The notes beneath the pieces were generated by a model, which had not been told where the DNA came from, did no database searches, and saw only the letters and a list, made by a program, of their open reading frames with translations. This document shows positions 10,262 through 27,595 of a DNA stretch of 37,991 nt, in pieces. The DNA is taken from contig CAYJNC010000001.1 of assembly GCA_964371185.1 (NCBI GenBank), positions 1-37,991 of the forward strand. Direction: 5' to 3'. Every line of letters starts with the position of its first letter. The first letter of the stretch is position 1. Both the position numbers and the translations under genes were made by a program. The stretch is from an uncultured Christensenellaceae bacterium (GTDB lineage Bacteria; Bacillota; Clostridia; Christensenellales; Christensenellaceae).

Positions 10262-10570
10262 ATGCAACTTGCAAGAGTAAAAGGAACGGTAGTAAGCACA
10301 AACAAGGCCGAGAAAATGTTGGGTTTAAAACTATTGATAGTAAAGCCGATAGAAATAGAGACATTTGAAGAAAAAGGTGGCTTGTTAGTTGTTGTAGATG
10401 CTGTCGGTGCGGGTGAAGGAGAGTTAGTAATGCTTGTCGGAGGAAGTTCATCACGGGCGACAGAAATTACCGATGGTAAGCCGGTAGACATGTCAATAGT
10501 TGCAATAATAGATTCTGTTGAAGTTGAAGGCATACGAATATTTGAAAAATTTAAAGAAGATAAAAAGTAG
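10262..10570 (+). CDS. BMC-P pentameric vertex protein (EutN/CcmL/PduN family), paralog 1
   Basis: 102 aa. MQLARVKGTVVSTNK...LLIVKPIE...VVVDAVGAGEGELVMLVGGSSSR is the canonical EutN/CcmL pattern. Confidence 0.9.
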   Translation: MQLARVKGTVVSTNKAEKMLGLKLLIVKPIEIETFEEKGGLLVVVDAVGAGEGELVMLVGGSSSRATEITDGKPVDMSIVAIIDSVEVEGIRIFEKFKEDKK

Positions 10571-10581: not shown

Positions 10582-11964
10582 ATGTCGTTAAATGGGCAAG
10601 ATATTAAAAAGATAGTAGAAGAAACCATGCAACAACTTTGTAATTCAAGTGAATTTTTGTTTGAAGATGCAAACGATGCGGTAAGAAGTGCAAAAGAATC
10701 TCAAAAAGTTTTGGGAAAAATGACACTTGAGCAACGTGGCAAATTGATTGCCAAAATGCGTGAAGTTGCACTCGAAAACAAGGTGTATTTAGCAGAGTTG
10801 GCACATAATGAAACAGGCTACGGAAGTGTTGAACATAAAATATTGAAAAATGAGTTGGCGGCAAATAAGACTCCCGGTGTGGAAGATTTAAGAACAAATG
10901 CGTATAGCGGAGACAACGGTTTAACTATCGTAGAATATGCGCCTTACGGTGTGATAGGTTCTATAACACCTTCTACAAATCCAACCTCTACAATAATAAA
11001 CAATTCTATAAGCATGATAGCTTCGGGTAATGCGGTTGTATATAACCCGCATCCGGCGGCAAAAAAATGTTCGCAAGAGGCTATGAGGTTGATGAACGAG
11101 GCCATTATTTCGGCAGGCGGTCCGGCTACGCTCATAACATCTGTAGTAAAACCAAGTTTGCAAAGCGGTCAAGTTATCATGAACCATAAGGATATTAAGA
11201 TATTGTCGGTAACGGGTGGCGAAGCGGTTGTTGAGGTGGCTATGAAAACAGGTAAGAAGGTTATAGCGGCAGGCCCCGGAAATCCGCCGGTTATAGTAGA
11301 TAACACCGCAAACATAAATCAGGCGGCAAAAGACATTGTTGATGGTGCAAGCTTTGACAATAATGTGTTGTGTGTTGCCGAAAAAGAAGTTTTTGCGTTT
11401 TCTGACATCGCAGACAGCCTGATGGCAGGCATGGAGCAGAACGGAGCAAAAAGAATTTATGGTGATGAAATAGACAAAGTAGTGAAGACCGTACTTGTAA
11501 ATAAAGATGGAAAATATGTTATTAACAGAGACTTCGTCGGCAAACCGGCGGTTCATATATTAAGAGAAGCAGGTGTAAGTTTTAGCGGTTCTCCGCGTTT
11601 GGTAATAGCGGAAGTAACGGCAGACCACCCGTTTGTATGGGTAGAGATGCTTATGCCTGTTTTGGGAATTGTGCGAGTAAATTCTATTGAAAGCGCAATA
11701 GATCATGCGATAGCTGCAGAGCAAGGTTGCCAACACTCGGCCATGATACATTCGACAAACATTAAAAACTTGTCTATGGCGGCAAGTGCTATGAACACTA
11801 CAATATTTGTTAAGAATGCACCTTCGTATTCGGGTCTTGGGTTTGGCGGCGAGGGGTATACAACTCTTACCATAGCTACTCCGACAGGCGAAGGGTTAAC
11901 GAGTGCCATATCATTTACACGTGCAAGACGTTGTGTGTTAAAAGGGGATTTCAGAATAATCTGA
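10582..11964 (+). CDS. CoA-acylating aldehyde dehydrogenase (PduP/EutE type)
   Basis: 460 aa. Catalytic-Cys context FDNNVLCVAEKE and GPGNPPV motif. The N-terminal GQDIKKIVEETMQQL helix precedes the conserved core. Confidence 0.9.
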   Translation: MSLNGQDIKKIVEETMQQLCNSSEFLFEDANDAVRSAKESQKVLGKMTLEQRGKLIAKMREVALENKVYLAELAHNETGYGSVEHKILKNELAANKTPGVEDLRTNAYSGDNGLTIVEYAPYGVIGSITPSTNPTSTIINNSISMIASGNAVVYNPHPAAKKCSQEAMRLMNEAIISAGGPATLITSVVKPSLQSGQVIMNHKDIKILSVTGGEAVVEVAMKTGKKVIAAGPGNPPVIVDNTANINQAAKDIVDGASFDNNVLCVAEKEVFAFSDIADSLMAGMEQNGAKRIYGDEIDKVVKTVLVNKDGKYVINRDFVGKPAVHILREAGVSFSGSPRLVIAEVTADHPFVWVEMLMPVLGIVRVNSIESAIDHAIAAEQGCQHSAMIHSTNIKNLSMAASAMNTTIFVKNAPSYSGLGFGGEGYTTLTIATPTGEGLTSAISFTRARRCVLKGDFRII

Positions 11965-11974: not shown

Positions 11975-13282
11975 ATGAATATAGCCGAACAAATTAGAGA
12001 AGCGGGAATAATTGGTGCAGGTGGTGCAGGGTTCCCGACTCATGTAAAAGTTAATACAAAAGCGGAATATGTGGTTGCAAACGGAGCCGAATGCGAGCCT
12101 TTATTGCGTGTTGACCAACAGGTAATGCAATATGAAGCAAAAAAAGTAGTGGCCGGTTTGGGTGCGATAATGCAACACACAGAAGCAAAAAAAGGTGTGA
12201 TAGCACTAAAAAGGCATTATAAAGATGCGATAGCCGCTTTAAGCAAAGAGCTTACGGCCGGCATGAGCCTTCATATTATGAAAGGGTATTATCCGGCCGG
12301 AGACGAACAACAAATTGTGTATGAAGTAACGGGAAAAGTGGTGCCGACGGGCGGTATCCCCTTAGATGTAGGTGCGGTTGTCTGCAATGTGAGTACCTTG
12401 ATGGAAATTGCAAACGCAATGGAAGGAAAGACAGTAACGGAAAAGTTTGTGACGGTCGGAGGTGCGGTAAAAACACCTAAAACGTTCAAAGTTCCGATTG
12501 GGATAACAGCAAAAGAATTGATAGATGCGGCCGGCGGTACGACTTGCGATTGCGTGTATATAGTTGGCGGGCCTTGTATGGGTGCGGTTAGGGAAGCTAC
12601 AGATTTCCCGATTACAAAAACAACCGGTGGTATTTTGGCAATACCCAAAGGGCATAGCATACTCGCAAAAAAATCAGAAAAAATGAACAGACAACTAATA
12701 CAAGCTGTCTGTTGCCAGTGTTCTATGTGTACACAAATGTGCCCAAGAAACATGCTCGGTTTAAATGTGGAACCTCATAAGGCTATGCGAGCGGTTGTGA
12801 GCGGTGCGGCGTTTAAGGAAGAAACGGCAAATGGGATATTCTCTTGCTGTGATTGCGGAATTTGCACATATTATGCCTGCAACTTTGGTTTGAAACCATC
12901 AAAGGTAATGGGCGAGTTTAAATCACAGATGATAAAAGCCGGAGTAAAGCCTAAAAAAGAAGTACGATATTCGGTTGACAGCAATATAGAGCAAAAGAAA
13001 TTACCGGTTTCTCGTATGGTGTCGAGGTTAGGGCTGAGTGAATATGATGTTGAGGCGCCTATGAATCAAATGCTTATGAATACGTCAATGGTGAGAATAC
13101 CACTTAAAATGCACATAGGAGCGCCATCTGTGCCGGTTGTTAAGGCGGGAGATATGGTGAAAAAAGGTCAGCTTATTGCCGACATTGCACCAAAGGCTTT
13201 AGGGGCAAAGGTGCATTCGAGCATAGACGGACAAGTTTTTGAAGTGACGGAAGAACGGATAGAAATAAGAGGTGTTAGATGA
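11975..13282 (+). CDS. PduS-like / RnfC-like Fe-S flavoprotein (NADH-binding, SLBB, two 4Fe-4S motifs, C-terminal barrel-sandwich domain)
   Basis: 435 aa. GAGGAGFPTHVK nucleotide/flavin motif. CCQCSMCTQMCP (CxxCxxCxxxCP) and CCDCGICTYYAC. The C-terminal IPLKMHIGAPSVPVVKAGDMVKKGQLIA resembles the RnfC hybrid-barrel domain. Confidence 0.8.
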   Translation: MNIAEQIREAGIIGAGGAGFPTHVKVNTKAEYVVANGAECEPLLRVDQQVMQYEAKKVVAGLGAIMQHTEAKKGVIALKRHYKDAIAALSKELTAGMSLHIMKGYYPAGDEQQIVYEVTGKVVPTGGIPLDVGAVVCNVSTLMEIANAMEGKTVTEKFVTVGGAVKTPKTFKVPIGITAKELIDAAGGTTCDCVYIVGGPCMGAVREATDFPITKTTGGILAIPKGHSILAKKSEKMNRQLIQAVCCQCSMCTQMCPRNMLGLNVEPHKAMRAVVSGAAFKEETANGIFSCCDCGICTYYACNFGLKPSKVMGEFKSQMIKAGVKPKKEVRYSVDSNIEQKKLPVSRMVSRLGLSEYDVEAPMNQMLMNTSMVRIPLKMHIGAPSVPVVKAGDMVKKGQLIADIAPKALGAKVHSSIDGQVFEVTEERIEIRGVR

Positions 13283-13827
13283 TGAAAGCGTTAGGCATGG
13301 TAGAGGTAGCGTCTATCCCAAACGGCATAAAAATAGGAGATGCAATGCTAAAAGCGGCATCGGTTGAACTTGTTTTTGCACAAGCGGTCTGTGCCGGAAA
13401 ATATATTGCAGTTGTTTCCGGTGACGTGGCGGCAGTTGAAGAAAGCGTTCGTGTCGGTACAAAACAATGCGAAAGCCAGCTTATAGACAGTCTTGTTTTA
13501 TCTACGGTGCATGAAGATGTCTTTTCGGCAATAAATGCCTGTAGCGAGATAGGAAATGTGGGTGCACTTGGTGTGATGGAAACATTTTCACTGTGTGCGG
13601 CGGTGATAGTTGCGGATGCGGCGGCCAAAGCGGCCGACATAAAATTAATAGAAGTTAGGTTAGGTCGAGGGCTGGGTGGAAAAGCTTTCATCACTATGAC
13701 GGGTGAAGTTTCGGCGGTTGAATCGGCGATAAAAGCGGCACAAGGAGTGCCAAGCATACAAGGGTTGATGTCGGCAAGTGTAGTAATACCTTCGCCGCAT
13801 ACTGATATAGTAAATTCACTATTATAA
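13279..13827 (+). CDS. Tandem-BMC-domain shell protein (BMC-T, PduT-like)
   Basis: 182 aa with two canonical BMC domains ([11 protein letters not shown]...[10 protein letters not shown] and [10 protein letters not shown]...[10 protein letters not shown]). A single Cys sits in AVCAGKY at residue 38. The start overlaps the PduS-like stop (ATGA). Confidence 0.85.
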
Positions 13828-13846: not shown

Positions 13847-14146
13847 ATGTCTAAGCAAGCACTTGGAATGGTAGAAACAAAGGGATTAATCGGAGCAATT
13901 GAGGCGGCAGACGCAATGGTTAAGGCGGCAGACGTAACACTTTGCGGAAAAGAACAAATCGGTAGCGGTCTTGTAACCGTAATGGTACGTGGCGATGTAG
14001 GTGCTGTTAAAGCGTCGGTAGATGCAGGAGCGGCGGCCGCAAAAAGAGTCGGCGATTTATACGGAGTTCACGTAATCCCGAGCCCGCATAATGATACAGA
14101 AGTAATTTTGCCTGCGCCAAAAGCAACACCGGCGGCAAAGAAATAA
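13847..14146 (+). CDS. BMC-H hexameric shell protein (PduA/EutM-like), copy 1, with Pro/Lys-rich C-terminal tail
   Basis: 99 aa. [26 protein letters not shown]...[19 protein letters not shown]. Tail is [12 protein letters not shown]. Confidence 0.93.
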
Positions 14147-14147: not shown

Positions 14148-14414
14148 ATGTATGTCGGTAAAGTTATCGGTCGGGTAGTATCGACCGTAAAAGACGAGAA
14201 CTTAAATAATATTCCGTTGCTTATTGTTAGGCAAATAGAAAACGGAAAGAATACGAAAGTATTGATTGCCACAGATGCCACAAGGCAAGCGGGCAAAGGA
14301 GATTTTGTTTATTTGATAGGGTCTAAAGAGGCGTCACGTTTGTTTAGAAAAAAGTATACGCCGACCGACGCATCAATAGTCGGATTTATAGATTCGTATC
14401 ATGAAAAATTATAA
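14148..14414 (+). CDS. BMC-P vertex protein (EutN/CcmL family), paralog 2
   Basis: 88 aa. MYVGKVIGRVVSTVKDENLNNIPLLIVRQIE. Starts 1 nt after the BMC-H stop. Confidence 0.88.
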   Translation: MYVGKVIGRVVSTVKDENLNNIPLLIVRQIENGKNTKVLIATDATRQAGKGDFVYLIGSKEASRLFRKKYTPTDASIVGFIDSYHEKL

Positions 14415-14427: not shown

Positions 14428-14706
14428 ATGCAAAAATTAGCACTTGGAATGGTAGAAACAAAAGGTTTAATAGGCGCAATTGAGGCGGCAGACGCAATGG
14501 TTAAAGCGGCAGACGTAACACTTTGCGGAAAAGAACAAATCGGTAGCGGTCTTGTAACCGTAATGGTACGTGGCGACGTTGGAGCTGTTAAGGCGGCTGT
14601 AGATGCAGGAGCGGCGGCCGCAAAAAGGGTTGGCGATTTATACGGAGTTCACGTAATCCCGAGCCCGAATGGCGATGTAGAAGCAATTTTACCTAAAGCA
14701 AAATAA
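14428..14706 (+). CDS. BMC-H hexameric shell protein, copy 2
   Basis: 92 aa. Essentially identical core to copy 1. Confidence 0.93.
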
Positions 14707-14769: not shown

Positions 14770-15042
14770 ATGCAAAAACAAGCACTTGGAATGGTAGAAA
14801 CAAAAGGTTTAATAGGCGCAATTGAGGCGGCAGACGCAATGGTTAAAGCGGCAGACGTAACACTTTGCAAAAAAGAACAAATCGGCAGCGGACTTGTAAC
14901 CGTTATGGTTCGTGGCGATGTTGGTGCTGTTAAGGCGGCTGTAGATGCAGGCGCGGCGGCTGCAAAAAGAGTTGGCGATTTATATGGAGTTCATGTAATC
15001 CCGAGCCCTCATGGCGATGTTGAAAGCATAATTGCTAAATAA
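14770..15042 (+). CDS. BMC-H hexameric shell protein, copy 3
   Basis: 90 aa. Same core, with Gly to Lys in TLCKKEQIG. Confidence 0.93.
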
Positions 15043-15346: not shown

Positions 15347-16093
15347 ATGGTAGATATTAAAAGGTTGATAGATGAAGTTAGTGCACAGGTAGGGGGCTTC
15401 ATGCCTACTGCTTATGTAAATGATGCAGTTTCAATAAGCGAGATACCGTCAAAATTAGAACACTCGTTGTTAAACCCGGATATTACAGAAAATAAGATCC
15501 GTGAAGAGTGTGCTAAGGCAAGAAGATATGGTGTTGCGGCCGTGTGTGTTGCACCCTACTATGTCGGTGTAATAAGAGAATGTTTAGCAGGTTCGACGGT
15601 TAAAGTTGGGACGGCAATAGGCTTTCCGCATGGATGCTTGTCTACGGCTTCTAAGGTTGCAGAAGCAAAAGAGTGTATTGAGAATGGCGCAAACGAAATT
15701 GATGTTTCGTTAAATATTTTGGCTATAAAATCTCAGAACATGGCAGACGCAAGAAAAGATTTAGAAACCGTTTTAGATGTATGCAGAGGAAAAGCGCTTG
15801 TTAAAGTTGTGTTTGAACACGCCGTTTACTCAGACGATGAAAAAATTGCGGTTCTTAACATGATACGTACGTGTGGTGCGGAATTTGTTAAGATTCAAAA
15901 TGTTCTGAGTGGCAAGGGTGCAGATGCAAACGACATACGTTTTGCAAAAGAAATATTGGGCAATAATGTGGGGATAAAGATAGACGGTGGAGTAAAAACA
16001 CTTGCTAAGGCAGAAGAATTGATTTTGGCAGGTGCAGACAGAATAGGTTTAACGGCCACAATAGAAATCGCAAAAGAGGCTCTGTTGAAGTAG
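15347..16093 (+). CDS. deoC: Deoxyribose-phosphate aldolase family protein (DeoC paralog 1, divergent) with N-terminal extension
   Basis: 248 aa. LEHSLLNPDIT, AVCVAPYYV, EIDVSLNI, VKVVFEH (Schiff-base Lys context), FVKIQNVLSGKGA in place of the canonical [18 protein letters not shown] roughly 33-aa N-terminal extension contains VDIKRLIDEVSAQV. Confidence 0.8.
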   Translation: MVDIKRLIDEVSAQVGGFMPTAYVNDAVSISEIPSKLEHSLLNPDITENKIREECAKARRYGVAAVCVAPYYVGVIRECLAGSTVKVGTAIGFPHGCLSTASKVAEAKECIENGANEIDVSLNILAIKSQNMADARKDLETVLDVCRGKALVKVVFEHAVYSDDEKIAVLNMIRTCGAEFVKIQNVLSGKGADANDIRFAKEILGNNVGIKIDGGVKTLAKAEELILAGADRIGLTATIEIAKEALLK

Positions 16094-16102: not shown

Positions 16103-17080
16103 GTGAAAGAAATAAATGCAAACGAATTGAACTTGATGATTAGCGTAATAAAAAAATATTACGAATTAGGTATGAATCAGGCGCAGATTGCAAAGGAAGA
16201 GTTTATTTCAAAATCTTCGGTTTGTAGGTTGCTTAAGAAGGCTGAGGAATACGGTTATGTAAAACATCAGATCAGTTACCCGGTAGAAACTTCCGGGATA
16301 TTGGAAAATGAGGTGTGCAGAGTATTCTCGCTTGAAAAAGCAATTATTTCACATGTGTATGCAGACAATGAAGAAGTGTTGTTAAACGACACCTGCACTT
16401 CGGTAGTTCATGATTTGTGTAAGATTGTTAAGGCAAAAGACATCATCGGAGTTGCGTGGGGGGTAACAATAGAACACCTTGTAAAAGCGATGAAAAAAAT
16501 GCCGAGAGTAAAAAAATGCGAAAAAGTTGTTTTGATTATTGGGTCTATTGCAGGAACAATAACATCTACGGTTTCGAGTAATATTGTAGAAGAAATATCG
16601 GACTACTTTTCGGCAAAAGGGTATTTATTGCCACTTCCGTTAATTGTAGACAGCGAATCTATCGCAAACACAATTAAAGAAGATTCGCATATTAAAGAAG
16701 TGTTAGACCTTGCAAGAGAATCGCAAATTGTGCTTTTGGGAATCGGAACTGTTGAAGGTGGCTCGGTGTTGCGTACACGCGGGGCGCTTAGTGAAGAAGA
16801 GCTAAAAAGTGTGATAGAAAAAGGTGCGGTTGCAAGCGTTGCCGGGCATTGTGTGGATATCGATGGCAAAGAAGTAAGTTCTGAATTGTCGTCGAGGATG
16901 ACAGGCCTAAGCATAGAAGAGATAAAGGCAAAACCGATAAGAATTGGTATTGCGGTAGGAAAGAGTAAGGCGAGAGCGATAATCGGTGCGCTTAACAGCG
17001 GGATAATCAACCGATTTTACAGCGATGAAAGTACGGTAAAAGAAGTTTTTAAAATATTAAAAAGTGAGGATAAACAATGA
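16103..17080 (+). CDS. SorC/DeoR-type sugar-binding transcriptional regulator (copy 2), embedded in the BMC operon
   Basis: 325 aa. GTG start 6 nt after AGGAGA. HTH YYELGMNQAQIAKEEFISKSSVCRLLKKA. Colinear with the regulator at 4633-5607. Confidence 0.85.
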   Translation: MKEINANELNLMISVIKKYYELGMNQAQIAKEEFISKSSVCRLLKKAEEYGYVKHQISYPVETSGILENEVCRVFSLEKAIISHVYADNEEVLLNDTCTSVVHDLCKIVKAKDIIGVAWGVTIEHLVKAMKKMPRVKKCEKVVLIIGSIAGTITSTVSSNIVEEISDYFSAKGYLLPLPLIVDSESIANTIKEDSHIKEVLDLARESQIVLLGIGTVEGGSVLRTRGALSEEELKSVIEKGAVASVAGHCVDIDGKEVSSELSSRMTGLSIEEIKAKPIRIGIAVGKSKARAIIGALNSGIINRFYSDESTVKEVFKILKSEDKQ

Positions 17081-18135
17081 AAGCAGTAAGAATGTATAAA
17101 CCGGGCGATTTAAGAGTAGAAGATGTTCCAAAACCTGTCCCGACGGATGATCAAGTTTTATTAAAAGTTATGGCGTGTGGTGTTTGCGGTTCAGACATAC
17201 CGCGTGTTAATGTGTATGGTGCTTATATTGCACCGTTAACGGTAGGCCACGAATTTTCGGCAAGAGTTGAAGAAGTTGGCAAAAACATTAAGAATTTTAA
17301 AGTAGGCGACAGGGTTACGGTTCCGCCGCTTATGCCTTGCTATAAATGTGAATGGTGCGAAAAAGGTATATATTCTTTGTGTAAAGATTATGACTATTTT
17401 GGTTCAAGAAGCGACGGTGCAATGGCAGAGTATGTTTGCTCTCCGGAGGCTAACTTGATGAAGTTGCCGGACAACGTAGACTACTTAGACGCAGCAACAA
17501 CAGATCCTTGTGCAAACGCAATCCACGGTTTAAACCAAGCTAAGTTGCAAGAAGGCGAAACAGTTGCGGTATACGGCGCAGGCCCTATTGGTTTGTTTGC
17601 TGTTCAATGCGCAAAAGCTTTCGGAGCAAAAACGGTTATTTCAATAGATTTAGGCGAAAAGAAATTAGACGTCGCTAAAGAATGCGGTGCAGACTATGTT
17701 ATAGATTCTTTAACTCAAAATGCGGTTGAAGAAATCAAAAAAATTACAGACGGTAAAATGGCAGATGTAGTTTTAGACATCACAGGTGCTCCGCCGGCGC
17801 AAATTAATGCGATTAATTCAACAGGTAAGATGGGTAGAATTGTGTTGGTTGGAATTTCACATAAAGGTTTGAGCTTAGGCGAAAAAGAAGTAGACACAAT
17901 TATGCGAAGCCAAATTTCATTAATTGGTTCTTGGAACTCGTTTACTAAACCTTTCCCGGGATACGACTGGACAGAATCTTTGAAATTGTTCTCGGAAGGC
18001 AAAATTACATCAAAACCTATGCTTAGCCACATGTTGACATTAGACGAAGCACCCGGCATATTTAAACAAATTGCAGACGGTGGATTGTTCTTTAATAAAA
18101 TTATGTTCTTACCACATGGCGATAAATTTGAATAA
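17077..18135 (+). CDS. Zn-dependent medium-chain alcohol/polyol(-phosphate) dehydrogenase (sorbitol/galactitol-1-P dehydrogenase-like)
   Basis: 352 aa. CGVCGSDIP and GHEFSARVEEVG catalytic-Zn motifs, structural-Zn CYKCEWCEKGIYSLC, GAGPIGL Rossmann motif. ATGA overlap with the regulator stop. Confidence 0.85.
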   Translation: MKAVRMYKPGDLRVEDVPKPVPTDDQVLLKVMACGVCGSDIPRVNVYGAYIAPLTVGHEFSARVEEVGKNIKNFKVGDRVTVPPLMPCYKCEWCEKGIYSLCKDYDYFGSRSDGAMAEYVCSPEANLMKLPDNVDYLDAATTDPCANAIHGLNQAKLQEGETVAVYGAGPIGLFAVQCAKAFGAKTVISIDLGEKKLDVAKECGADYVIDSLTQNAVEEIKKITDGKMADVVLDITGAPPAQINAINSTGKMGRIVLVGISHKGLSLGEKEVDTIMRSQISLIGSWNSFTKPFPGYDWTESLKLFSEGKITSKPMLSHMLTLDEAPGIFKQIADGGLFFNKIMFLPHGDKFE

Positions 18136-18166
18136 ACCGCAAGTGTGTATTTGAGGAGGAAATAAT

Positions 18167-18991
18167 ATGGATATAAATGCGATAATTAAACAGGTAACAG
18201 AAGAAGTTTGTGCAAAATACAGCACGCCGGCAACAACACAAAGCGGAGATTTATCTCCGGCTTCACTTGCAAAGTATATTGACCATACTTTATTAAAGGC
18301 TGATGCAAGTGTCGAAGGCGTGCGTAAGGTTTGTGACGAAGCTAAAAAATACAATTTTGCAAGCGTGTGTGTGAACCCTTCATACATTAAATTTGTTGCT
18401 GAATGCTTGGCAGGAAGCGGAGTTGCACCTTGTTGTGTAATAGGTTTCCCTTTAGGAGCTTGCACACCCGAGGCAAAGGCGAACGAAGCTGCCGATGCGG
18501 CAAGCAACGGTGCTAAAGAAGTTGACATGGTTGTCAATGTAGGCGCAATAAAATCTAACGACTGGATGCTTGTTAAAAGAGATGTTGAAGGCGTTGTTCA
18601 GGCAACAAAAGGCCGTGCTATAGTAAAAGTTATAATCGAAACTTGCTTGCTTACAGACGAAGAAAAAGTTAAGGCTTGCGCAATAAGCAAAATGGCGGGT
18701 GCTCACTTTGTTAAAACATCAACAGGTTTTTCTACAGGCGGAGCAACGGCAGAAGATGTTGCGTTGATGAGAGAAACGGTTGGACCGGAAATCGGTGTTA
18801 AAGCATCGGGCGGTGTTAAAACTTATGAAGACGCCGTTATGATGATAAAAGCAGGCGCAAACCGTTTGGGAACAAGTTCTGGTGCGGCTATAGTTTCGGG
18901 AGTTTCCGATTCTCACAGCTGTGTAAACTGTGGTGCTTGCAAGGGTAAATGCCCGACAGGTAGTGCAACAATAATTAAAAACAGCTATTAA
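18167..18991 (+). CDS. deoC: Deoxyribose-phosphate aldolase (DeoC paralog 2, canonical core) with an N-terminal targeting-like extension and a C-terminal Cys-motif extension
   Basis: 274 aa. [66 protein letters not shown]. The N-terminal 34 aa are [33 protein letters not shown]. The C-terminal tail is [28 protein letters not shown]. Confidence 0.9.
18920..18955 (+). other. Ferredoxin-type CxxCxxCxxxCP motif encoded at the 3' end of deoC paralog 2
   Basis: TGT GTA AAC TGT GGT GCT TGC AAG GGT AAA TGC CCG = [12 protein letters not shown] (Cys252/255/258/262). Confidence 0.8.
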
Positions 18992-19081
18992 TAATATAAA
19001 AAAAACCGACGGCGGAGTAGTTGCACAATAGCTATTTCGTCGTTAGCTTTTTTAACGCTACTATAAATAAATGGAGAAAAA

Positions 19082-19825
19082 ATGAGAAAGCCAATTATTG
19101 CGGGAAACTGGAAAATGAATATGACACCCGGTGAAACATTTAAGTTGATTTCAGAAATTAAACCTTTGGTGCAGGGGGTGCAGGCGGAAGTGGTTGTTTG
19201 CCCCATGTCGGCATGTTTGTTTGCGGCAAAAGGTGCAATAGAAGGATCAAACATTAAATTGGGTGCGCAAAATGTGTATTTTGAAGAAAACGGGGCATAC
19301 ACAGGCGAAGTTAACGTTGCTACGTTAAAAGAACTGTCGGTAGAATACGTTATTATCGGCCATTCTGAAAGAAGACAGTATTTTAATGAAACAGATGAAA
19401 CTGTTTTGAAAAAGGTTAAAAAGTGCTTAGAATTTGGATTGAAGCCGATTATATGTGTGGGTGAGAGTTTAGAGCAAAAGGAACTCGGTATAACTAAGCA
19501 AGTTGTAGCATTGCAGACTATGTCTGCCTTGCATGGGTTACTTGCAAAAGACTTAGACAACATAGTAATTGCATACGAGCCTGTTTGGGCAATTGGTACC
19601 GGAAAAACGGCAACGGCACAAGATGCAAACCAAACAATTAGGGCGATAAGAAAAACGGTTGCACAGCTTTTTGATGAAAAAGCAAACGAGGTGCGTATAC
19701 AATATGGCGGAAGCATGAATCCGTCTAATGCAAGCGAATTGATGGCAATGAGCGATATAGACGGTGGGCTTATCGGTGGTGCGAGTTTGAAACCAAACGA
19801 TTTTGCAAAGATAGTTAATTATTAA
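19082..19825 (+). CDS. tpiA: Triosephosphate isomerase
   Basis: 247 aa. IIAGNWKMN, IIGHSERR, AYEPVWAIGTGKTA. GGAGA RBS upstream. Confidence 0.95.
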   Translation: MRKPIIAGNWKMNMTPGETFKLISEIKPLVQGVQAEVVVCPMSACLFAAKGAIEGSNIKLGAQNVYFEENGAYTGEVNVATLKELSVEYVIIGHSERRQYFNETDETVLKKVKKCLEFGLKPIICVGESLEQKELGITKQVVALQTMSALHGLLAKDLDNIVIAYEPVWAIGTGKTATAQDANQTIRAIRKTVAQLFDEKANEVRIQYGGSMNPSNASELMAMSDIDGGLIGGASLKPNDFAKIVNY

Positions 19826-19853
19826 TTTAGGTATGAAGAGTGAGGAGATAATT

Positions 19854-20462
19854 ATGAGCGGATTTAATATTAGTGATAATTTATTTGATTATGAAAAAGG
19901 TTTTACGATTGATTTTAATTTATTAAACGGAATGTCTTCCATGAAAAAAACATCAAAAAGATTTTTGAGCAAAGTAAAAGATGTTTTTTATGACGTTGAT
20001 GCGGCAGACGCAGACATTGCAAAAAACGGAGACAAACTTGTGTATGAATTTCACGAGATGGATGCCCCCGACCATATGGGAGATATCGCCTATGGCATGA
20101 GTATTGTGTACCCCGGAAAAGTGGGCAATGAATATTACATGACAAAAGGCCATTTTCATTCGGTGCTTGATACGGCAGAAGTTTATTATTGTTTAGAAGG
20201 ACATGGTTATATGATGCTTGAGAGTCCGGAGGGAGATTGGTCTTGTCATGAATTATTGCCGGGTAAAATGGTTTATTGTCCTCGTAGATATGCACATCGT
20301 TCGATAAACGTTTCGCCTAACGAACCGTTGCGTACATTCTTTGTGTTCAGGGGAGATGCAGGTCATGATTACGGCACAATCGAAGAAAAAGGATATCGTA
20401 ATCTGTTGGTTGAAGAAGATGGCGAACCGAAAATTATAGCTAACCCGAAATGGGGTAAGTAG
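19854..20462 (+). CDS. Cupin-type (archaeal-type) glucose-6-phosphate isomerase family protein
   Basis: TKGHFHSVLDTAEVYY matches the cupin-PGI TxGHxH-x6-ExY signature, and CPRRYAHRSIN matches the second PxxxxHRxxN signature. The ATG at 19854 has a GAGGAG RBS. The ORF-track start at 19833 lacks one. Confidence 0.8.
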   Translation: MSGFNISDNLFDYEKGFTIDFNLLNGMSSMKKTSKRFLSKVKDVFYDVDAADADIAKNGDKLVYEFHEMDAPDHMGDIAYGMSIVYPGKVGNEYYMTKGHFHSVLDTAEVYYCLEGHGYMMLESPEGDWSCHELLPGKMVYCPRRYAHRSINVSPNEPLRTFFVFRGDAGHDYGTIEEKGYRNLLVEEDGEPKIIANPKWGK

Positions 20463-20943: not shown

Positions 20944-23900
20944 ATGACGAGCAGCAAAAAAGTTTTGGCATTAATATTAATAATTTGTTTGATAGTAACT
21001 TTAGTACCGGCTACGGTTGGTTTTGCAGAAGGTGCAGAACCGGAAAAACCGGCGGACATTGTCGAGATTATTAGTGTAACACCGCTTGCAACGGAGATTG
21101 CAACGCAGAAAATTGTGGTGGATGATACAACTACAATACCGACATTGGCGGATAAAATTTCGGCAACGGTGAAAACAACCACACACACAACGCAAAACGA
21201 AGACGGTACATGGCAAACGACTTCTTCGGAAGAAACAGAAGAACTTGCGGTTACATATGCTTTGGCGGAGGGCTCAACATTTGCGACAACCGAGCCGGCA
21301 CAGTTTATCTATACCGCTACACTTGCGGATAATACGCTTACACTTGCACAAGGCGTAGCCTTGCCGCAAATTACTGTTGATGTGGTGGCAAAAGTTGCCG
21401 AACAACCGGGTGATCCCAAACAACCTGAACCCGAGCAAGCACCGCCGGCAGTAAAAACAATAACGGAAATAGCAGATCCTACCCCAATTGAAATAGAATT
21501 AAACCAAGAAATTACAGAGCAAGTGCTTTTGGCAACATTTCCTACTGAGTTAAGTGCAACGGTAGACGGAGTGCAAGAAGATGTAGCGGTCGTTGCATGG
21601 AAGTTTGTTTTCTCTTCAACAAATACCCCATTTGCGACAGCTGTTAAGGCGGAGTATTATTATGAGCCGACATTAGCGGAAGGTTACACCCTTTCGAGTG
21701 AAATTTTCAGCCCGTCACAAAAAGTGCAGGTAGGAGAAGCGCTTGTGCACAACCCCACACCGGCAAGCACGGGAGATTTTAGCGTAGTGGGTGGTACTAT
21801 TAACGATGATTATACATTTGGTGCAAACTCAGCGGGAATAGATGTGCTTACAATTAAATCGGATAAAGAGCTTATAATAAGCGGCACAACATTATCAGAT
21901 GTAATAGTAATAGAGGACGGTATTACTGCAAACATTACGTTAAACGATCTGAATATAGATGTAAATAATTCGGCCGATGTTTGTGCATTTGAAATAGCCG
22001 GTACGGCAACGGCAAACATAAAGTTGGTGGGCACAAATGCTTTAAAAAGCGGTATTAGAGAAGCCGGATTACAAGTGACATCGGGGGCGACACTTACAAT
22101 AGTGCAAGAGTCAACCGGAAGTTTAGAGGTATCCGGCGGAAATAGAGCGGCAGGCATTGGTGGCAGTGTAGGAAATAGCGGTGGAACAGTAAACATACAT
22201 GGTGGAAGTATTGTTGCGACAGGTGGAGCTAGCGGTGCAGGCATAGGCAGCGGGGCGTTTTTGTTGACTGATACCATAGAACGAACAGGTGGAAAGATAA
22301 CCATAACAGGCGGTGGTGTTGTTGCAAGCAATCTGGGTTACGCTGCGGGCATCGGTGGCGGAGCGTATTGTCAGGGTGCTGAGGTAATCATATCAGGCGG
22401 AGTTGTTTATGCAACCGATAAAGATGCAGATGGCATTGGTGGCGGGTTTTCAAGTAATGGTCAGAACGGAACTTTTTCAACGACGGGTAGTGCCGGAAAC
22501 ACCGGAAATGCATATATATTCGCCTCTTCTATTGGCGACAAGACGCATTTGGATAGTTGGTCGGGGATAATTTTTGAAGGGGATTTAGGAAAAGTATATG
22601 GCGATGTTACAGTAACAAATGTTTTTACCCTCCCAAGCGGAAAAACGTTAGAAGTGCCGACAGATGGGAAAATAACAGTACCGTCAGGCAAACAAATAAA
22701 CATTGAAGCCGGCGCAATAATGAACATTGCGACAACCGGCGGAGTAGAAAACAACGGTGAAATATTTAATTACGGTACAATAAACACGGCAGAAAAGATA
22801 ACCGGAAGTGGTGCAATTTACCCTATAGCCGGAAATGAAAACCCGGTTGTTAGTGTTGGGGCTACGGAGTATTATTTACGATTAGATGGAACGAACAAGC
22901 AGTTTTCTTATGACAATTCTAATTGGGAAAAATATACGGGAACAGTAACGATTAAGGGTAGCACGACGGAAAACCAAGTGACGATTTTTAGTGGTGAGCA
23001 TGATATTATATTTGATAATTTAAGTATGCTAATGAGCAATAGAAATACTAGTCCGTTTAGGATAGAGAACAGTGGGGTTGCGAATATCACGTTAAAGGGT
23101 GATAACAAGTTGTCGAGTTTTGGATATGCAGGAACTCTGGAGTTTACATATCCGGCTACATTGACAATAACAAAAGAATCTACCGGTAGCTTAGAGGCGG
23201 TTAGCAAAGGTACGGGTGCGGCTATTGGTGGTGATAATGAAGAAATTGGCGGCATTGTAAACATATATGGCGGCATAATAAAGGCCATAGCGGAAGAAAA
23301 CGGAGCCGGCATTGGTGGCGCTAATGGCAAGGAAGGTGGTATCGTAAACATTTATGGGGGTAGTGTAGAAGCAAGCAGTGTATTAGGAATGAGCATCGGT
23401 GCAGGGGAAAGTCGTTTTGATAATCCGGGCAGTATTAACTATATTAAACCTACGGGAAATGTGAACAGCATTCAAATTTTAGCGGGTGGTGATGCTGCAA
23501 ACACAACAGCATACAAGACGACCGATGAATATTATAAAAATAAATATGTAAAAATAGATATACAAGAAGTTGTTCCGACGGTAAATTTAGGGCAGGCGCT
23601 TATGTATAGCGGAGCGGAGCAAACTCAAACGGTTGCATCTGTTATGTTGGGGAGTGTAGCTCTTGACGCAAACACAGAATACACGCTAAGCAATAATAAG
23701 GCAACAAACGTGGGGGACTACGAATTAACAGCAAATGTAAATATCGATGGGTCAGGGAAGTATGATGATGTGCAAAAGGTTACATATTTAGGGGAAAGTA
23801 GTGTTACTCAAAAATTTAGCATAGCAAAAGCACAAATAAGCATAGCAAGCGCGGCTGCCAAAAACAAAACTTATGACGGTACAAGTGTGGCGGCTGTTGA

Positions 23901-24789
23901 TGTTGTGTTTAGTGGACAGGGAGATGTGAGCAGTTTATTGCCAGGCAAAGACTACACTGTTAGTGCAAATTTTGCGAGTGCAAATGCAGGTAATAATATT
24001 GCTGTAAGCGGAACGGTTACTTTGCAAAATGATAGTTATGAGCTTAATAACTCGGCTTTGCCGAGTGGGGTGAGTGCGAATATTTTGCAAAAACCTATAG
24101 ATTCGGCAAATGTGATTCTCGGTGTTGCTTTGGTGGCAACAGGGCAAGAGCAGACACAAACGGTTTCTTCGGTTGTGGTTGACGGTGTGAAACTCGTTGA
24201 AAATGTTGATTATGTTGTAAGCGGAAACGTGGTAACAAATGCAGGTGATTATACTCTGACGATAACCGGAAAAGGTAATTATGGCGGAAGTATTGCAAAA
24301 GCATTTACCGTGACAAGTGCATCGACGGGTGGAGGTACATTGCCCTATCAACCGGGTGGTGTGGTAGACCCGGGTGGGTCGGAAGTGCCGGGTGGAAATT
24401 CTATTATAATTTCGCCGTTGCCGTCTGAAAAGCAACAGGAAGATTTAGAAAAGTTGACAGATTATGCGGAAAAAAATAACATAAGCGGAACGGTTACATT
24501 CTTAGAAGACATAACAATGAAAGACGCAAATGGCAATGAAGTTCAGCCGAGCGGGAACAACACGAAGATTCGTATAGATGTTCCCGGGCTTACGACAAAA
24601 GACACTGTGACGGTGTTGCATATTAAAGACGACGGCAGTGTAGAGCAAATTTTGCCGGTGTGGGTGTATATGGGATATGTAGAGTTTTATCCCACAAGTT
24701 TTTCGACCTACAGTGTTATAGTGCATAAATATGTTGAGCCGAGTGTCGATACAAGTGTTTCATATACCTCGCCTAAAACAGGGCAGTGA
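20944..24789 (+). CDS. Large secreted repetitive cell-surface protein (beta-helix-like GxGIGG modules plus MBG/YDG-type adhesin repeats)
   Basis: 1281 aa. Signal peptide MTSSKKVLALILIICLIVTLVPATVGFAEG. Two homologous modules (...TLTIVQESTGSLEVSGGNRAAGIGG...VNIHGGSIVA... and ...TLTITKESTGSLEAVSKGTGAAIGG...VNIYGGIIKA...). Three Ig-like repeats carry NVGDY/NAGDY and KTYDGT motifs. A Gly/Pro linker follows. The C-terminus ends ...YTSPKTGQ*. Confidence 0.85.
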   Translation: MTSSKKVLALILIICLIVTLVPATVGFAEGAEPEKPADIVEIISVTPLATEIATQKIVVDDTTTIPTLADKISATVKTTTHTTQNEDGTWQTTSSEETEELAVTYALAEGSTFATTEPAQFIYTATLADNTLTLAQGVALPQITVDVVAKVAEQPGDPKQPEPEQAPPAVKTITEIADPTPIEIELNQEITEQVLLATFPTELSATVDGVQEDVAVVAWKFVFSSTNTPFATAVKAEYYYEPTLAEGYTLSSEIFSPSQKVQVGEALVHNPTPASTGDFSVVGGTINDDYTFGANSAGIDVLTIKSDKELIISGTTLSDVIVIEDGITANITLNDLNIDVNNSADVCAFEIAGTATANIKLVGTNALKSGIREAGLQVTSGATLTIVQESTGSLEVSGGNRAAGIGGSVGNSGGTVNIHGGSIVATGGASGAGIGSGAFLLTDTIERTGGKITITGGGVVASNLGYAAGIGGGAYCQGAEVIISGGVVYATDKDADGIGGGFSSNGQNGTFSTTGSAGNTGNAYIFASSIGDKTHLDSWSGIIFEGDLGKVYGDVTVTNVFTLPSGKTLEVPTDGKITVPSGKQINIEAGAIMNIATTGGVENNGEIFNYGTINTAEKITGSGAIYPIAGNENPVVSVGATEYYLRLDGTNKQFSYDNSNWEKYTGTVTIKGSTTENQVTIFSGEHDIIFDNLSMLMSNRNTSPFRIENSGVANITLKGDNKLSSFGYAGTLEFTYPATLTITKESTGSLEAVSKGTGAAIGGDNEEIGGIVNIYGGIIKAIAEENGAGIGGANGKEGGIVNIYGGSVEASSVLGMSIGAGESRFDNPGSINYIKPTGNVNSIQILAGGDAANTTAYKTTDEYYKNKYVKIDIQEVVPTVNLGQALMYSGAEQTQTVASVMLGSVALDANTEYTLSNNKATNVGDYELTANVNIDGSGKYDDVQKVTYLGESSVTQKFSIAKAQISIASAAAKNKTYDGTSVAAVDVVFSGQGDVSSLLPGKDYTVSANFASANAGNNIAVSGTVTLQNDSYELNNSALPSGVSANILQKPIDSANVILGVALVATGQEQTQTVSSVVVDGVKLVENVDYVVSGNVVTNAGDYTLTITGKGNYGGSIAKAFTVTSASTGGGTLPYQPGGVVDPGGSEVPGGNSIIISPLPSEKQQEDLEKLTDYAEKNNISGTVTFLEDITMKDANGNEVQPSGNNTKIRIDVPGLTTKDTVTVLHIKDDGSVEQILPVWVYMGYVEFYPTSFSTYSVIVHKYVEPSVDTSVSYTSPKTGQ

Positions 24790-25252: not shown

Positions 25253-26377
25253 TTATAGTAGATCACAAATTTTTTCGGCTGCGTGTCCGTCGCCGTAGTA
25301 GGCGCTATAATTGTCTTTATCTGTTATGGTGTCAAAAACTTTAGACAAAATGTCTTTTGTGTTTGGTTTGGCTAAAATGTTGTAACCACCGTTTAAAGTC
25401 TCCGTCCATTCGGTCTGGTCTCTTACTGTAACACAAGGGGTTTTTAGTATATAACTTTCTTTCTGTAAACCGCCTGAGTCGGTTATTACTTTTTTCGCAT
25501 TTTTGGTAAAGAATAACATTTCGGAATAGCCGACGGGTTCAACAAAAAGAATATTTTTGAACGAAAGTTCGTTGTTTAAACTGTCTACCATGTTACGCAC
25601 ACGAGGGTGTACCGGGAAAATTACGGGAGCATCTAATTGTTCGAATGCAGACAATATTTCTCTTATTTTTGAAATATCATCGGTGTTTTCGGCTCTGTGA
25701 ATGGTAGCTAAATAACAATCGGACAAGCAAGAGGGAAGTACGGTAGAAAAAATAGGCTGTAACCTATTGATGTATTCGCTTGAATCCGTAGAAAGCGCAC
25801 TCGCATAGCTAAGCACGGCATCGCACATAACGTCGCCTACGCAATGAACGCCGTTTTTTATGCCTTCATTTGCCAAATTATCTACTGCCTGCATAGTTGG
25901 GCAAAACAACAATTCAGATAATTTATCGGTGACTATCCTGTTTTGTTCTTCGGGCATATTCATGTTAAACGAACGCAACCCGGCCTCTACGTGTGCTATG
26001 GGGATAAGTATTTTAGATGCCGCTAAGGCACCTGCTATTGTTGAATTTGTGTCGCCGTATAAAAGAAGGTATTCGGGTTTTTCTTTTAATAAAATTTCTT
26101 CTATTCCTATCATCATCTTAGCTGTCTGAACCGCATGGCTACCCGAACCTACGCCCAATTGATATTTGGGTTTTTCCATGTTTAGTTCACTAAAAAATAT
26201 GTCAGACATATTGCTGTCGTAGTGTTGCCCTGTATGAATAACTATTTCTTCGTGATTTTTATTTAAAACTCGAGATACTATGGCCGCCTTAACAAATTGC
26301 GGACGAGCACCTATTACTGTTGCAATTTTCAATTTATTTATCTTCACTTTCTTATTGTATTTATTATTATGATACAA
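25253..26377 (-). CDS. wecB: UDP-N-acetylglucosamine (or UDP-diNAc-uronate) 2-epimerase, non-hydrolysing WecB/WbpI family
   Basis: VIGARPQFVKAA, VIHTGQHYD, HVEAGLRSFN, PEEQNR motifs. The ORF-track start is TTG. The true start may be the internal GTG/TTG near KINKLKIATV. Confidence 0.88.
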   Translation of the reverse strand: MYHNNKYNKKVKINKLKIATVIGARPQFVKAAIVSRVLNKNHEEIVIHTGQHYDSNMSDIFFSELNMEKPKYQLGVGSGSHAVQTAKMMIGIEEILLKEKPEYLLLYGDTNSTIAGALAASKILIPIAHVEAGLRSFNMNMPEEQNRIVTDKLSELLFCPTMQAVDNLANEGIKNGVHCVGDVMCDAVLSYASALSTDSSEYINRLQPIFSTVLPSCLSDCYLATIHRAENTDDISKIREILSAFEQLDAPVIFPVHPRVRNMVDSLNNELSFKNILFVEPVGYSEMLFFTKNAKKVITDSGGLQKESYILKTPCVTVRDQTEWTETLNGGYNILAKPNTKDILSKVFDTITDKDNYSAYYGDGHAAEKICDLL

Positions 26378-26416
26378 TAAATCGGATGTTATGTAAATAT
26401 TATTGATATTAATATG

Positions 26417-27595
26417 TTAGAACAAAAAGGAAACTTCTTTGTCGAACAATTCAACAAAATGCTCGTAACTGTATAGCGGATTGCAAACAATTTCTTCGTA
26501 TGCGGCTTCGGTTATTTTTTTTCTTGTTTCCGGGTCTAAAAAAAGGCTCATGACTTCTTCTATATTGCTCCAGTCTTTCTTTATGGGAATATAATGCCTA
26601 TATGGCTTGAATATATCTTGATAGTGTCCTTCATACATCAACTGAACGGCAAAACAGGCGGCGGCTTCAAAATGCTTGGGGGCAACCGCTCGGTATTGCG
26701 GACCGTTTTCGTAAGGCGCCAACACCGTAGAGAATAATTCTTTGGGGGAGGCATTTTTATTGTTTGACAAATATTCATTTATAATTTTTTCGGCACTGCC
26801 GTCGAAGTCTACAATGCTTGTGCCCGATTCTGTTGCAAGCACTCCGCAAGAATTGCCCAACAATTTGAAATATTCTACCGCCGCCAAACGTTTGCTATTT
26901 TCGGAAGAAATATCGGTAATTAAATTATATTGTTTGGTATGTGCCAAAAAGGATTCGCCTATTTCGTATTTTTCATATGCCAAACTGCCGAAAGAATAGG
27001 GGAGTTTGTTGCCCCTATAGCTAACTTGTATGGGTCTGTTTTCTTCAAATTTATAGGGTAAGTTGCGAAGGTCGTCTAATACATATCGGGTAAGGTACGA
27101 AATAAACTTAGTTTTCTCAAACATTTTTTTCGGATAGAATTGCTCTATGTTGGTTTGGTCGCACAAAGTAAAAACCAAGTCGAAATTTAATTGTTTTAAA
27201 AATTCGATTCTATCGTTTAACCGGTCGTACTCGTCTTGCATAAAAAGAATTTTTTTGCCTGCATAATTATTTAGTTTTTGCTTGGAAAACTTGTCGAATT
27301 GATATAACGATGTAATTGGTTTATAAGTAACCGTATAATGAAATATTAGGCCATCGTATTTAGATAAATCTATATTTTTTGGCAACATTCGCAAATTTGC
27401 AAGGTTTAAATGGTCTATTTCATAGGTGGAATTATCTATTAGAGAATGAATCATAGGTACAAATGTATTTGTAACATCTTCTTTGTAAGCGGCAAACATA
27501 AGCAGTTTTGGCTTTTTTCCATCTTTTTTGGCAGATGGTATTATACAAGGCGGGTTAAATGTGTGGTTGAATAATTGTTTTACCCTGTTTGGCAT
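26417..27595 (-). CDS. Hypothetical protein, putative CgeB-like/GT1-related glycosyltransferase
   Basis: 392 aa. The C-terminal PKHFEAAACFAVQLMYEGHYQDIFKPYRHYIPIKKDWSNIEEV...ETRKKITEAAYEEIV resembles, from memory, the CgeB-type glycosyltransferase C-terminal domain. The N-terminal two thirds are unassigned. Confidence 0.45.
   Translation of the reverse strand: MPNRVKQLFNHTFNPPCIIPSAKKDGKKPKLLMFAAYKEDVTNTFVPMIHSLIDNSTYEIDHLNLANLRMLPKNIDLSKYDGLIFHYTVTYKPITSLYQFDKFSKQKLNNYAGKKILFMQDEYDRLNDRIEFLKQLNFDLVFTLCDQTNIEQFYPKKMFEKTKFISYLTRYVLDDLRNLPYKFEENRPIQVSYRGNKLPYSFGSLAYEKYEIGESFLAHTKQYNLITDISSENSKRLAAVEYFKLLGNSCGVLATESGTSIVDFDGSAEKIINEYLSNNKNASPKELFSTVLAPYENGPQYRAVAPKHFEAAACFAVQLMYEGHYQDIFKPYRHYIPIKKDWSNIEEVMSLFLDPETRKKITEAAYEEIVCNPLYSYEHFVELFDKEVSFLF

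Follow-up and report, generated by a model that had tools for sequence, protein, structure and literature searches.

A stretch of 37,991 nucleotides from an uncultured Christensenellaceae bacterium (GenBank assembly GCA_964371185.1, contig CAYJNC010000001.1; the whole stretch is called the window below) contains a gene for deoxyribose-phosphate aldolase (DERA) whose product ends in a cysteine-rich tail. The gene, of the DERA/DeoC2 type, lies at 18167–18991 on the forward strand, in an operon for a bacterial microcompartment. The tail is probably derived from a ferredoxin-type Fer4 repeat and appears to correspond to exactly one such repeat, that is, to half a ferredoxin domain. It is likely a functional, microcompartment-specific element that binds a metal or an iron-sulfur cluster. 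As judged from the sequences, the tail is a strongly conserved and microcompartment-specific feature of a known enzyme in a known type of organelle.

In the list of open reading frames, the gene starts with an ATG at 18167, ends with the stop codon at 18989–18991, and encodes 274 residues. A variable linker (GVSDSHS, residues 245–251, 18899–18919, +), which differs in length and sequence among orthologues, leads from the last short helix of the catalytic barrel to the first cysteine. It is followed by the motif C252-V-N-C255-G256-A-C258-K-G-K-C262-P263 (18920–18955, +), which was classed as Fer4-type on its invariant cysteine, glycine and proline residues and its matches to Fer4 models. An 11-residue end segment (18956–18988, +) closes the chain on Tyr274. 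The coordinates and the transcription that the initial annotation had given for this element are exact, with the codon of Cys252 starting at 18920. Conservation was assessed in 52 orthologues that are less than 85% identical to one another. C252, C255, G256, C258, C262, P263, G265 and Y274 are invariant in this set, K271 is conserved in 90%, and the stretch of at least seven residues ahead of the first cysteine is variable in both sequence and length. The 120 closest protein clusters (69–100% identity) have lengths of 247–288 residues; 118 of them carry C-x2-C-x2-C-x3-C near the C-terminus, and the other two keep the cysteines with an altered spacing between the third and the fourth. The terminal tyrosine is present in all of these clusters but one, which is itself truncated.

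With such an unusual architecture, a sequencing or annotation error could be suspected, namely a frameshift or a read-through into the remnant of a ferredoxin gene. Nothing beyond the architecture itself speaks for this explanation. The same in-frame tail occurs in 55 independent assemblies and in 118/120 of the closest clusters. The assembly collection has 2768 blocks with one of its variants (P0087), which occurs in thousands of metagenome samples. The pattern of conservation is that of selection, so the probability of an artefact is negligible and the explanation was discarded. Chance is not a credible source of the motif either, since C-x2-C-x2-C-x3-C-P would be expected about 1e-9 times per position at a cysteine content of about 1% (our own estimate) and the motif is invariant across orthologues.

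The resemblance to ferredoxins is not limited to the cysteines. The tail has the hallmark spacing Cys-x2-Cys-Gly-x-Cys-x3-Cys-Pro, with the glycine directly after the second cysteine. Residues 249–265 match the Pfam model Fer4 (PF00037) with E=7.8e-4 and 19.6 bits, which is slightly under the gathering score of 21.1. Among the orthologues, 48/52 match a model of the Fer4 clan at E<=0.01 (Fer4_7/Fer4_9) and 41/52 match PF00037, the best E value being 1.1e-5; some of them also carry precomputed PF00037 or PF12838 matches. When the 33-residue tail was compared with the PDB sequences by phmmer, about 24 residues aligned to single repeats of FwdF, MvhB and the ferredoxin 1fdn (E=1.9e-6 for 1fdn). 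The alignment runs past the cysteines into the next strand, CPxxAxT[IV]xK. A complete Fer4 domain has two repeats, and there is a single one per polypeptide here. Together with the invariant motif, these alignments bear out the view of the initial annotation that the tail is real, conserved and ferredoxin-like.

Four closely spaced cysteines can also chelate zinc or form reversible disulfides, and the tail might accordingly stiffen a lengthened C-terminus, either as a purely structural knuckle or as a thiol redox switch. The sub-threshold Fer4 score of the window sequence is compatible with such a role, and a tetrahedral zinc site would tolerate the spacing between the third and fourth cysteines, which is usually 3 residues and is 2, 4, 5 or 6 residues in a lineage-specific manner. 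Nevertheless, the invariant residues that are not ligands (the glycine after the second cysteine, the proline after the fourth and the glycine two positions further) are ferredoxin hallmarks, which argues against a generic metal knuckle. The similarity to Fer4 also extends past the cysteines, and the tail is restricted to strict anaerobes. A zinc or disulfide role is therefore considered improbable. The spacing variants were seen in loci L022, L031, L032 and L033; L029, L035, L037 and L044; L046 and L052; and L056, L059–L061 and L064. In the 2-residue variant, Lys271 is additionally replaced by proline.

Apart from its tail, the protein is an intact class I DERA with all catalytic and phosphate-binding residues kept. 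Residues 34–243 match the TIGR00126 deoC model with 279.5 bits (cut-off 117.3), and the protein matches PF01791 with 49.8 bits (cut-off 23.8). The TIM barrel comprises residues 31–244 (18257–18898, +). Asp120 (in EVDMV; 18524–18526), Lys183 (in FVKTSTG; 18713–18715), Lys212 (in VKASGG; 18800–18802) and the loop G235-T-S-S-G239 are invariant in the 52 orthologues. The catalytic roles of the aspartate and the two lysines were assigned by homology to D102, K167 (the Schiff base lysine) and K201 of E. coli DERA (PMC8403123). The statement of the initial annotation that DERA itself needs no cofactor is upheld. Of the DERAs with a solved structure, 5dbu and 8qps come closest, with E values of about 1e-80 over residues 33–247 only, and none of those in the PDB reaches into a comparable cysteine tail. 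An AlphaFold2 model of the monomer, built from the 52-sequence alignment, has a mean predicted local distance difference test score (pLDDT) of 86. It shows eight strand/helix units with a barrel pLDDT above 90, and the barrel ends in a short helix (residues 239–244) directly after the phosphate loop. Residues 245–274 are unstructured without a cofactor, with a pLDDT of about 50.

The position of the motif within the C-terminus is particularly informative. Close Bacillaceae relatives without the cysteine tail end in ...SSGVxIxxGLxxDS(D/N)Y, i.e., also in a tyrosine. According to the account in PMC8403123, which cites Schulte 2018, the disordered C-terminal tail of E. coli DERA can adopt a closed state, in which the terminal Tyr259 reaches into the active site and contributes to catalysis. 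Since tail-less relatives share the terminal tyrosine and this residue is catalytic in E. coli, the motif is best read as an insertion between the barrel and the retained tyrosine, within the catalytic tail. The distance from the Cys-Pro pair to the C-terminus supports the same picture: it was scored in all 56 of 56 proteins and is almost always 11 residues (range 10–12). One exception to the terminal tyrosine was found among the tail-bearing loci, L038, whose protein ends in cysteine. The initial annotation had regarded the motif as simply appended after the canonical C-terminus, and this has to be corrected. By analogy with E. coli, a catalytic role may be assigned to Tyr274. In TIM barrels, the helix of the phosphate site lies on the catalytic face. 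As helix 239–244 follows the phosphate loop, the motif would sit at the entrance to the active site rather than form a neutral appendage.

The distribution of the tail was studied in 80 loci from species-representative genomes, which were mapped with the operon proteins of the window. Six peptide patterns were used to fetch the loci; one of them was the motif CVNCGACK, so the sample is enriched for tail-bearing genes, and tail-less relatives came in through the barrel patterns. The best match among the fetched loci was from Christensenella hongkongensis (83%). Shell genes were found within the fetched flank in 53/55 tail-bearing loci and in 1/25 loci without an intact tail (Fisher p=4.8e-17). 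Both shell-less tail-bearing cases sit on short contigs of 8.5 and 2.6 kb, and the sole tail-less case with shell genes, L030, has a decayed tail, in which a stop codon lies in frame and the first cysteine has become arginine. In this locus, from a metagenome-assembled genome of the Synergistaceae, the stop lies just ahead of the motif (approximately 10700–10830), and the microcompartment operon is otherwise intact. The initial annotation had proposed to examine whether the tail occurs only in microcompartment loci, and the comparison answers this clearly: the tail is essentially confined to them. A search of the 80 loci and the window (approximately 1.3 Mb) for the lone C-terminal motif returned 56 instances, all in DERA homologues, and found none on any non-DERA protein. 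In the source annotation, the tail-bearing proteins are called “deoxyribose-phosphate aldolase” only.

The hosts belong to the Christensenellaceae, Oscillospiraceae, Synergistaceae, Eubacteriales Family XIII and other Clostridia, and all of them are taken to be strict anaerobes. Among 50%-identity representatives, a single protein (P0230) of the top 150 among 12,841 DERA-like matches (E<=0.001) has the tail, which thus appears to be clade-restricted and rare among DERA-like proteins. The placement of the gene varies: it may stand right after the gene of a second DERA paralogue, DeoC1, and before triosephosphate isomerase (TPI), or ahead of the block of shell genes, or in a satellite locus. In the satellite loci (L004, 10001–11124; L007; L009; L051), the tail-bearing DERA is accompanied only by a SorC regulator, an FGGY kinase and one BMC-H gene, and the spoIIIA sporulation operon follows directly. 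In these genomes, the main microcompartment locus must lie elsewhere.

The strict co-location with shell genes could mean that the tail serves encapsulation or docking to the shell, for example by plugging into the pore of the shell protein PduT or by ligating its cluster. For the PduT cluster, no assignment of the fourth ligand is known from the structural literature. The initial annotation had likewise considered a shell-binding peptide. This role is unlikely, as the N-terminus already has the features of such a peptide. In the AlphaFold2 model, residues 3–19 (18173–18223, +) form a moderately amphipathic helix with a hydrophobic moment of 0.43, compared with a mean of 0.23 +/- 0.11 for shuffled sequences, 5% of which reach 0.43. 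Positions D2, N4, I7, V10, T11 and E13 are conserved among the orthologues. A disordered and poorly conserved linker follows (residues 20–30, 18224–18256, +), with a pLDDT below 50 at residues 20–24, no secondary structure and “x” in the consensus. All DERAs of the SPU type of microcompartment are reported to carry N-terminal extensions, which were read as encapsulation peptides (PMC11585597), and the helix-plus-linker N-terminus of the tail-bearing DERA is a probable encapsulation peptide. The C-terminal tail, in contrast, forms no helix, has a hydrophobic moment of 0.11–0.28 and shows no amphipathic character. For this reason, the encapsulation role is better given to the N-terminus. Moreover, DeoC1, which is presumably encapsulated in the same way, has no tail; capping PduT takes one ligand and not four; and the invariant terminal tyrosine is left unexplained. 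Shell docking by the tail is thus regarded as very unlikely.

Six further loci (L039, L042, L049, L050, L054 and L062) encode DERA homologues that are 64–75% identical to the query and have neither the cysteine tail nor the terminal tyrosine. They keep an encapsulation-peptide-like N-terminus (MDI..I..V.EEV), and shell genes are absent over distances of up to 10 kb. These proteins may be cargo whose genes lie apart from those of the shell, or may once have been cargo.

How might a ferredoxin-type repeat affect an aldolase that requires no cofactor? The reading preferred here is that of an iron-sulfur lid on the catalytic tail. The gene would encode a catalytically competent, lumen-targeted DERA of an SPU-type microcompartment, with one Fer4 repeat inserted into its flexible C-terminal catalytic tail, and the four tail cysteines would hold an iron-sulfur cluster, most likely [4Fe-4S]. 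The phosphate-binding helix, where the chain is predicted to exit the barrel, would lie on the catalytic face, and the terminal tyrosine would still have to reach the active site from there. The cluster-bound knot could then act as a lid or an anchor that sets the conformation of the tail. DERA activity, and hence the release of acetaldehyde into the lumen, would depend on an intact or suitably poised cluster. The production of aldehyde would in this way be tied to the same oxygen-sensitive iron-sulfur chemistry, from PduS (MNdh) to PduT (BMC-T(SE)), that recycles NAD+ for the aldehyde dehydrogenase (AldDH). This iron-sulfur chain for the recycling of NAD+ was described in PMC11626177. The coupling would act as a fail-safe, because the removal of acetaldehyde needs NAD+ that is regenerated through MNdh(PduS) and BMC-T(SE)(PduT). 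That the tail gates DERA activity in precisely this manner is a tentative proposal, possible rather than probable.

Several observations weigh against it. A lone repeat that holds one cluster in cis would need a geometry other than that of ferredoxins, and a comparison of the 52 orthologues with tail-less DERAs revealed no further conserved cysteine specific to the tail-bearing group elsewhere in the protein. In some lineages, the third and fourth cysteines are separated by anything between 2 and 6 residues, and the window protein falls short of the Pfam gathering threshold for Fer4. The structure of the tail is predicted without confidence (pLDDT of about 50), and the geometry of the lid follows from reasoning and not from a model. 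There are also the paralogues with an encapsulation peptide that have neither tail nor terminal tyrosine, which indicates that the tyrosine is dispensable in the clade. Lastly, at least two loci (L022 and L031) keep a tail variant without PduS/PduT, which weakens the functional coupling.

The question of ligands deserves closer attention. In the ferredoxin fold, the first three cysteines of a repeat ligate one cluster, and its Cys-Pro cysteine ligates the neighbouring cluster. Cys15 in the N-terminal extension, which the initial annotation had suggested as a fourth ligand, is not credible and was ruled out, as it is present in just 60% of the orthologues. The barrel cysteines C56, C68, C89, C160 and C171 were rejected as extra ligands because they are equally conserved in tail-less DERAs. 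No conserved complementing cluster of cysteines was found in DeoC1, the eut_hyp-like protein, PTAC, TPI, AldDH or the shell proteins of the operon. Apart from PduS, the conserved cysteines of the other operon proteins are the known catalytic ones and Cys38 of PduT, which is 100% conserved in 37 orthologues. In one of the three BMC-P proteins (BMC-P3, 15046–15333, +), Cys79 is conserved in 94% of 47 orthologues, and the other two have no conserved cysteine. Short synthetic peptides with a ferredoxin motif can chelate one cluster with four cysteines in cis. Two options of ligation remain: four cysteines in cis with a non-ferredoxin geometry, or two tails paired in trans.

In the second option, two tails from the same dimer or from different dimers would build a clostridial-type 2x[4Fe-4S] ferredoxin, each giving its first three cysteines to one cluster and its Cys-Pro cysteine to the other. 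Such pairing would create a clamp or cross-link that depends on the clusters and organizes the cargo core, and possibly also a redox-active di-cluster in the lumen. Together with its flanking strand segments, the tail corresponds exactly to one Fer4 repeat, and Fer4 repeats are established to work normally in pairs. There is no other conserved cysteine, in the tail-bearing DERA or in the other operon proteins, that would complete the site. If the tail needs a partner to fold, its lack of structure in the AlphaFold2 monomer is what one would expect, and a signature enzyme is a natural scaffold for the aggregation of cargo. As far as the oligomeric state is concerned, the N-terminally truncated DERA of the SPU6 subtype elutes as a dimer, and the E. 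coli orthologue is dimeric (PMC11585597). On the other hand, the invariant tyrosine and the fixed 11-residue spacing suggest an intramolecular role at the active site, and a domain shared between subunits is hard to square with this tyrosine unless it sits over both active sites. To our knowledge, there are no natural homodimeric half-ferredoxins. Pairing in trans is therefore judged to be rather unlikely, although it is the strongest competitor of the lid. The more specific claim, that pairs of tails form an iron-sulfur-dependent and oxygen-sensitive cross-link, possibly an electron-conducting node, by which the cargo core is organized, is slightly more doubtful still. If true, trans-paired tails would represent a surviving form of the homodimeric ancestor that has long been postulated for ferredoxins, and also a new principle of cargo assembly in a very common microcompartment of gut anaerobes.

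Electron transfer is another function to be considered for a cluster at this position. The tail could be a relay or a docking element for the PduS/MNdh–PduT export chain, either taking electrons from MNdh or reporting the redox poise of the chain to DERA. Almost every main locus with the tail-bearing gene also has genes for PduS and PduT, and motifs of the ferredoxin type are usually electron carriers. A recurrent link between DERA and redox cofactors is also suggested by the flavoprotein–DERA fusions of archaeal SPU systems (PMC12747264) and by the fusion P0140. Nevertheless, DERA catalysis has no redox step, and MNdh was modelled docked directly on the PduT homologue with the clusters 7–9 angstrom apart, which makes a relay superfluous (PMC11626177). 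Other SPU subtypes have PduS, and no such tail is reported for them in the main text of PMC11585597. A strict coupling of the tail to PduS/PduT was examined and not upheld, because L022 and L031 have the tail variant and no PduS/PduT in the operon. An accessory role in electron transfer is consequently held to be quite unlikely.

The surroundings of the gene fit a microcompartment of the SPU type. The combination of DERA and AldDH with three BMC-P genes defines this type (Sutter 2021; Dwyer 2024, PMC11585597), and the window locus has two PF01791 genes, AldDH, three BMC-H, one PduT-type BMC-T and three BMC-P genes. All genes listed here lie on the forward strand and, unless stated otherwise, were assigned by Pfam/NCBIfam scans. 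The operon comprises PTAC (8938–9561), a eut_hyp-like gene (9578–10252), a BMC-P (10262–10570), acylating AldDH (10582–11964; NF011927, 632 bits), PduS/MNdh with two cluster motifs (11975–13282), PduT/BMC-T(SE) with Cys38 (13279–13827), a BMC-H (13847–14146), a BMC-P (14148–14414), two BMC-H genes (14428–14706 and 14770–15042), the third BMC-P at the coordinates given above, and DeoC1, which encodes 248 residues (15347–16093; PF01791 match). A SorC-type regulator and a Zn-dependent polyol or sugar-phosphate dehydrogenase (16103–18135) lie between DeoC1 and the tail-bearing DERA. The latter is preceded by a Shine-Dalgarno-like GAGGAGG (18153–18159), read from the sequence 7 nt before the ATG. 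It is followed by a terminator-like hairpin (19008–19044) with a T-run (whole element 19008–19054), which is a pattern match from a consensus scan only. TPI (19082–19825; PF00121, E=3e-94) is the next gene, as in most related loci, and would take on glyceraldehyde-3-phosphate, a product of DERA. A cupin-type sugar-phosphate isomerase of the archaeal-type glucose-6-phosphate isomerase family (19833–20462; PF06560) follows directly.

PTAC, PduS, TPI and the three BMC-P genes, with no double-stacked BMC-T (BMC-T(dp)) detected in the window locus, fit the descriptions of SPU1, SPU4 or SPU7. An RpiB-type ribose-5-phosphate isomerase (RPI; PF02502) had no match in 31 of the 35 main open reading frames of the window, those scanned, with four at 33323–37876 left out. 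RPI occurs in most SPU subtypes and was reported absent from SPU5 and part of SPU4, so the lack of a PF02502 match does not exclude SPU. Upstream of the operon (871–8713, +), a ribose-type ABC transporter, another SorC regulator and two FGGY kinases are encoded. The SorC family is that of DeoR, the deoxyribose regulator of B. subtilis. Instead of nucleoside-derived deoxyribose, or in addition to it, the compartment may be supplied with another sugar or a polyol. In the compact operon of the P0087 variant, the order is DeoR, Fe-ADH, PTAC, a hypothetical protein, BMC-P, AldDH, PduS, PduT, BMC-H, BMC-H, BMC-P, BMC-H, BMC-P, a DeoC1-like protein, the tail-bearing DERA and TPI. Further downstream in the window, a 1281-residue protein (20944–24789, +) has only a weak CBM_X2 match. 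The region 25253–37876 is a polysaccharide biosynthesis cluster unrelated to the tail, with a UDP-GlcNAc 2-epimerase, glycosyltransferases, a sugar transferase, a GFO/IDH/MocA oxidoreductase and a hexapeptide acetyltransferase.

DeoC1 sits directly after the last BMC-P gene. It is divergent and keeps the Asp/Lys/Lys triad; the motifs of its substrate and phosphate sites are altered (VKIQNxLSG, IKIDGG and GLTAT), and it has neither the cysteine tail nor the terminal tyrosine. Its N-terminus resembles an encapsulation peptide (MVDIKRLIDEVSAQV). Conserved copies of DeoC1 occur in 43 related loci, in most cases just ahead of the tail-bearing gene, and the protein may act on a different substrate or be a non-catalytic partner. 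In some assemblies, it has no Pfam match on record. Many of the closest 50%-identity representatives (P0122–P0243) are fusions of 400–560 residues with the DERA domain at one end, for example Flavoprotein+DeoC (P0140), DeoC+class II aldolase (P0134) and PfkB kinase+DeoC (P0243). In P0122, P0125, P0126, P0130 and P0156, about 250 N-terminal residues have no Pfam match.

DERA is the textbook example of a cofactor-free aldolase and a widely used biocatalyst, and SPU compartments are among the most widespread microcompartments, with one SPU DERA (SPU6) characterised. The tail suggests that these organelles have a level of control or assembly that has gone unrecognised. It could couple the output of toxic acetaldehyde to the iron-sulfur or redox status, organize the cargo through clusters, or provide a link to MNdh–PduT. 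For this class of enzymes, kinetics may be misleading when the protein is purified aerobically or truncated at its “canonical” C-terminus.

The tail can be compared with several known systems. Clostridial 2x[4Fe-4S] ferredoxins and polyferredoxins (1fdn; FwdF, 5t5i; MvhB, 9sw6) share with it the sequence Cys-x2-Cys-Gly-x-Cys-x3-Cys-Pro-x-Gly and a short strand. In contrast to these proteins, there is one repeat instead of two, it is carried by a TIM-barrel aldolase, and the spacing between its third and fourth cysteines varies in some lineages. Iron-sulfur clusters are also found in enzymes without redox chemistry or with a regulatory use of the cluster, such as glutamine PRPP amidotransferase of B. 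subtilis, endonuclease III/MutY and aconitase/IRP1, in which the integrity of the cluster controls activity or stability, much as is proposed here for the lid. These enzymes have no sequence relation to the tail-bearing DERA, and their cysteines are dispersed within the fold and not collected in a terminal Fer4 repeat. The tail of E. coli DERA, as described in PMC8403123, is likewise flexible and ends in a tyrosine that enters the active site. However, it is short, metal-free and disordered, whereas here a Fer4 repeat of about 24 residues is inserted ahead of the tyrosine.

Among microcompartment proteins, the nearest precedent is the shell protein PduK, whose C-terminal extension has a tetracysteine motif that is a possible iron-sulfur ligand (PMC6325248). 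Both cases fall under the theme of “redox-replete” microcompartments. Iron-sulfur sites are also known in PduT, GrpU and PduS. PduK, PduT and GrpU are shell proteins, whereas here a Fer4-type motif stands on a non-redox signature cargo enzyme. The SPU6 DERA from Chloroflexi (Dwyer, Sutter & Kerfeld 2024, PMC11585597) is alike in being the signature class I aldolase of a metabolosome with DERA and AldDH and in having an N-terminal extension. The main text of that paper mentions no cysteine-rich C-terminal tail or iron-sulfur cofactor. Unlike SPU6, the window locus has two DERA paralogues and no RpiB-type isomerase in the scanned open reading frames. Full-text literature searches for DERA together with 4Fe-4S or iron-sulfur returned no description of the tail, with the supplement of PMC11585597 lying outside the search. 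A suggestive parallel is provided by the flavoprotein–DERA fusions of SPU-like systems in Hodarchaeales (PMC12747264), where a redox-type module is likewise attached to an encapsulated DERA, in the company of MNdh and a T protein with a cysteine pore. That module is archaeal and is an N-terminal flavoprotein domain, not a C-terminal Fer4 repeat. By analogy between the two cases, a redox-type cofactor module on an encapsulated DERA may be a recurrent solution.

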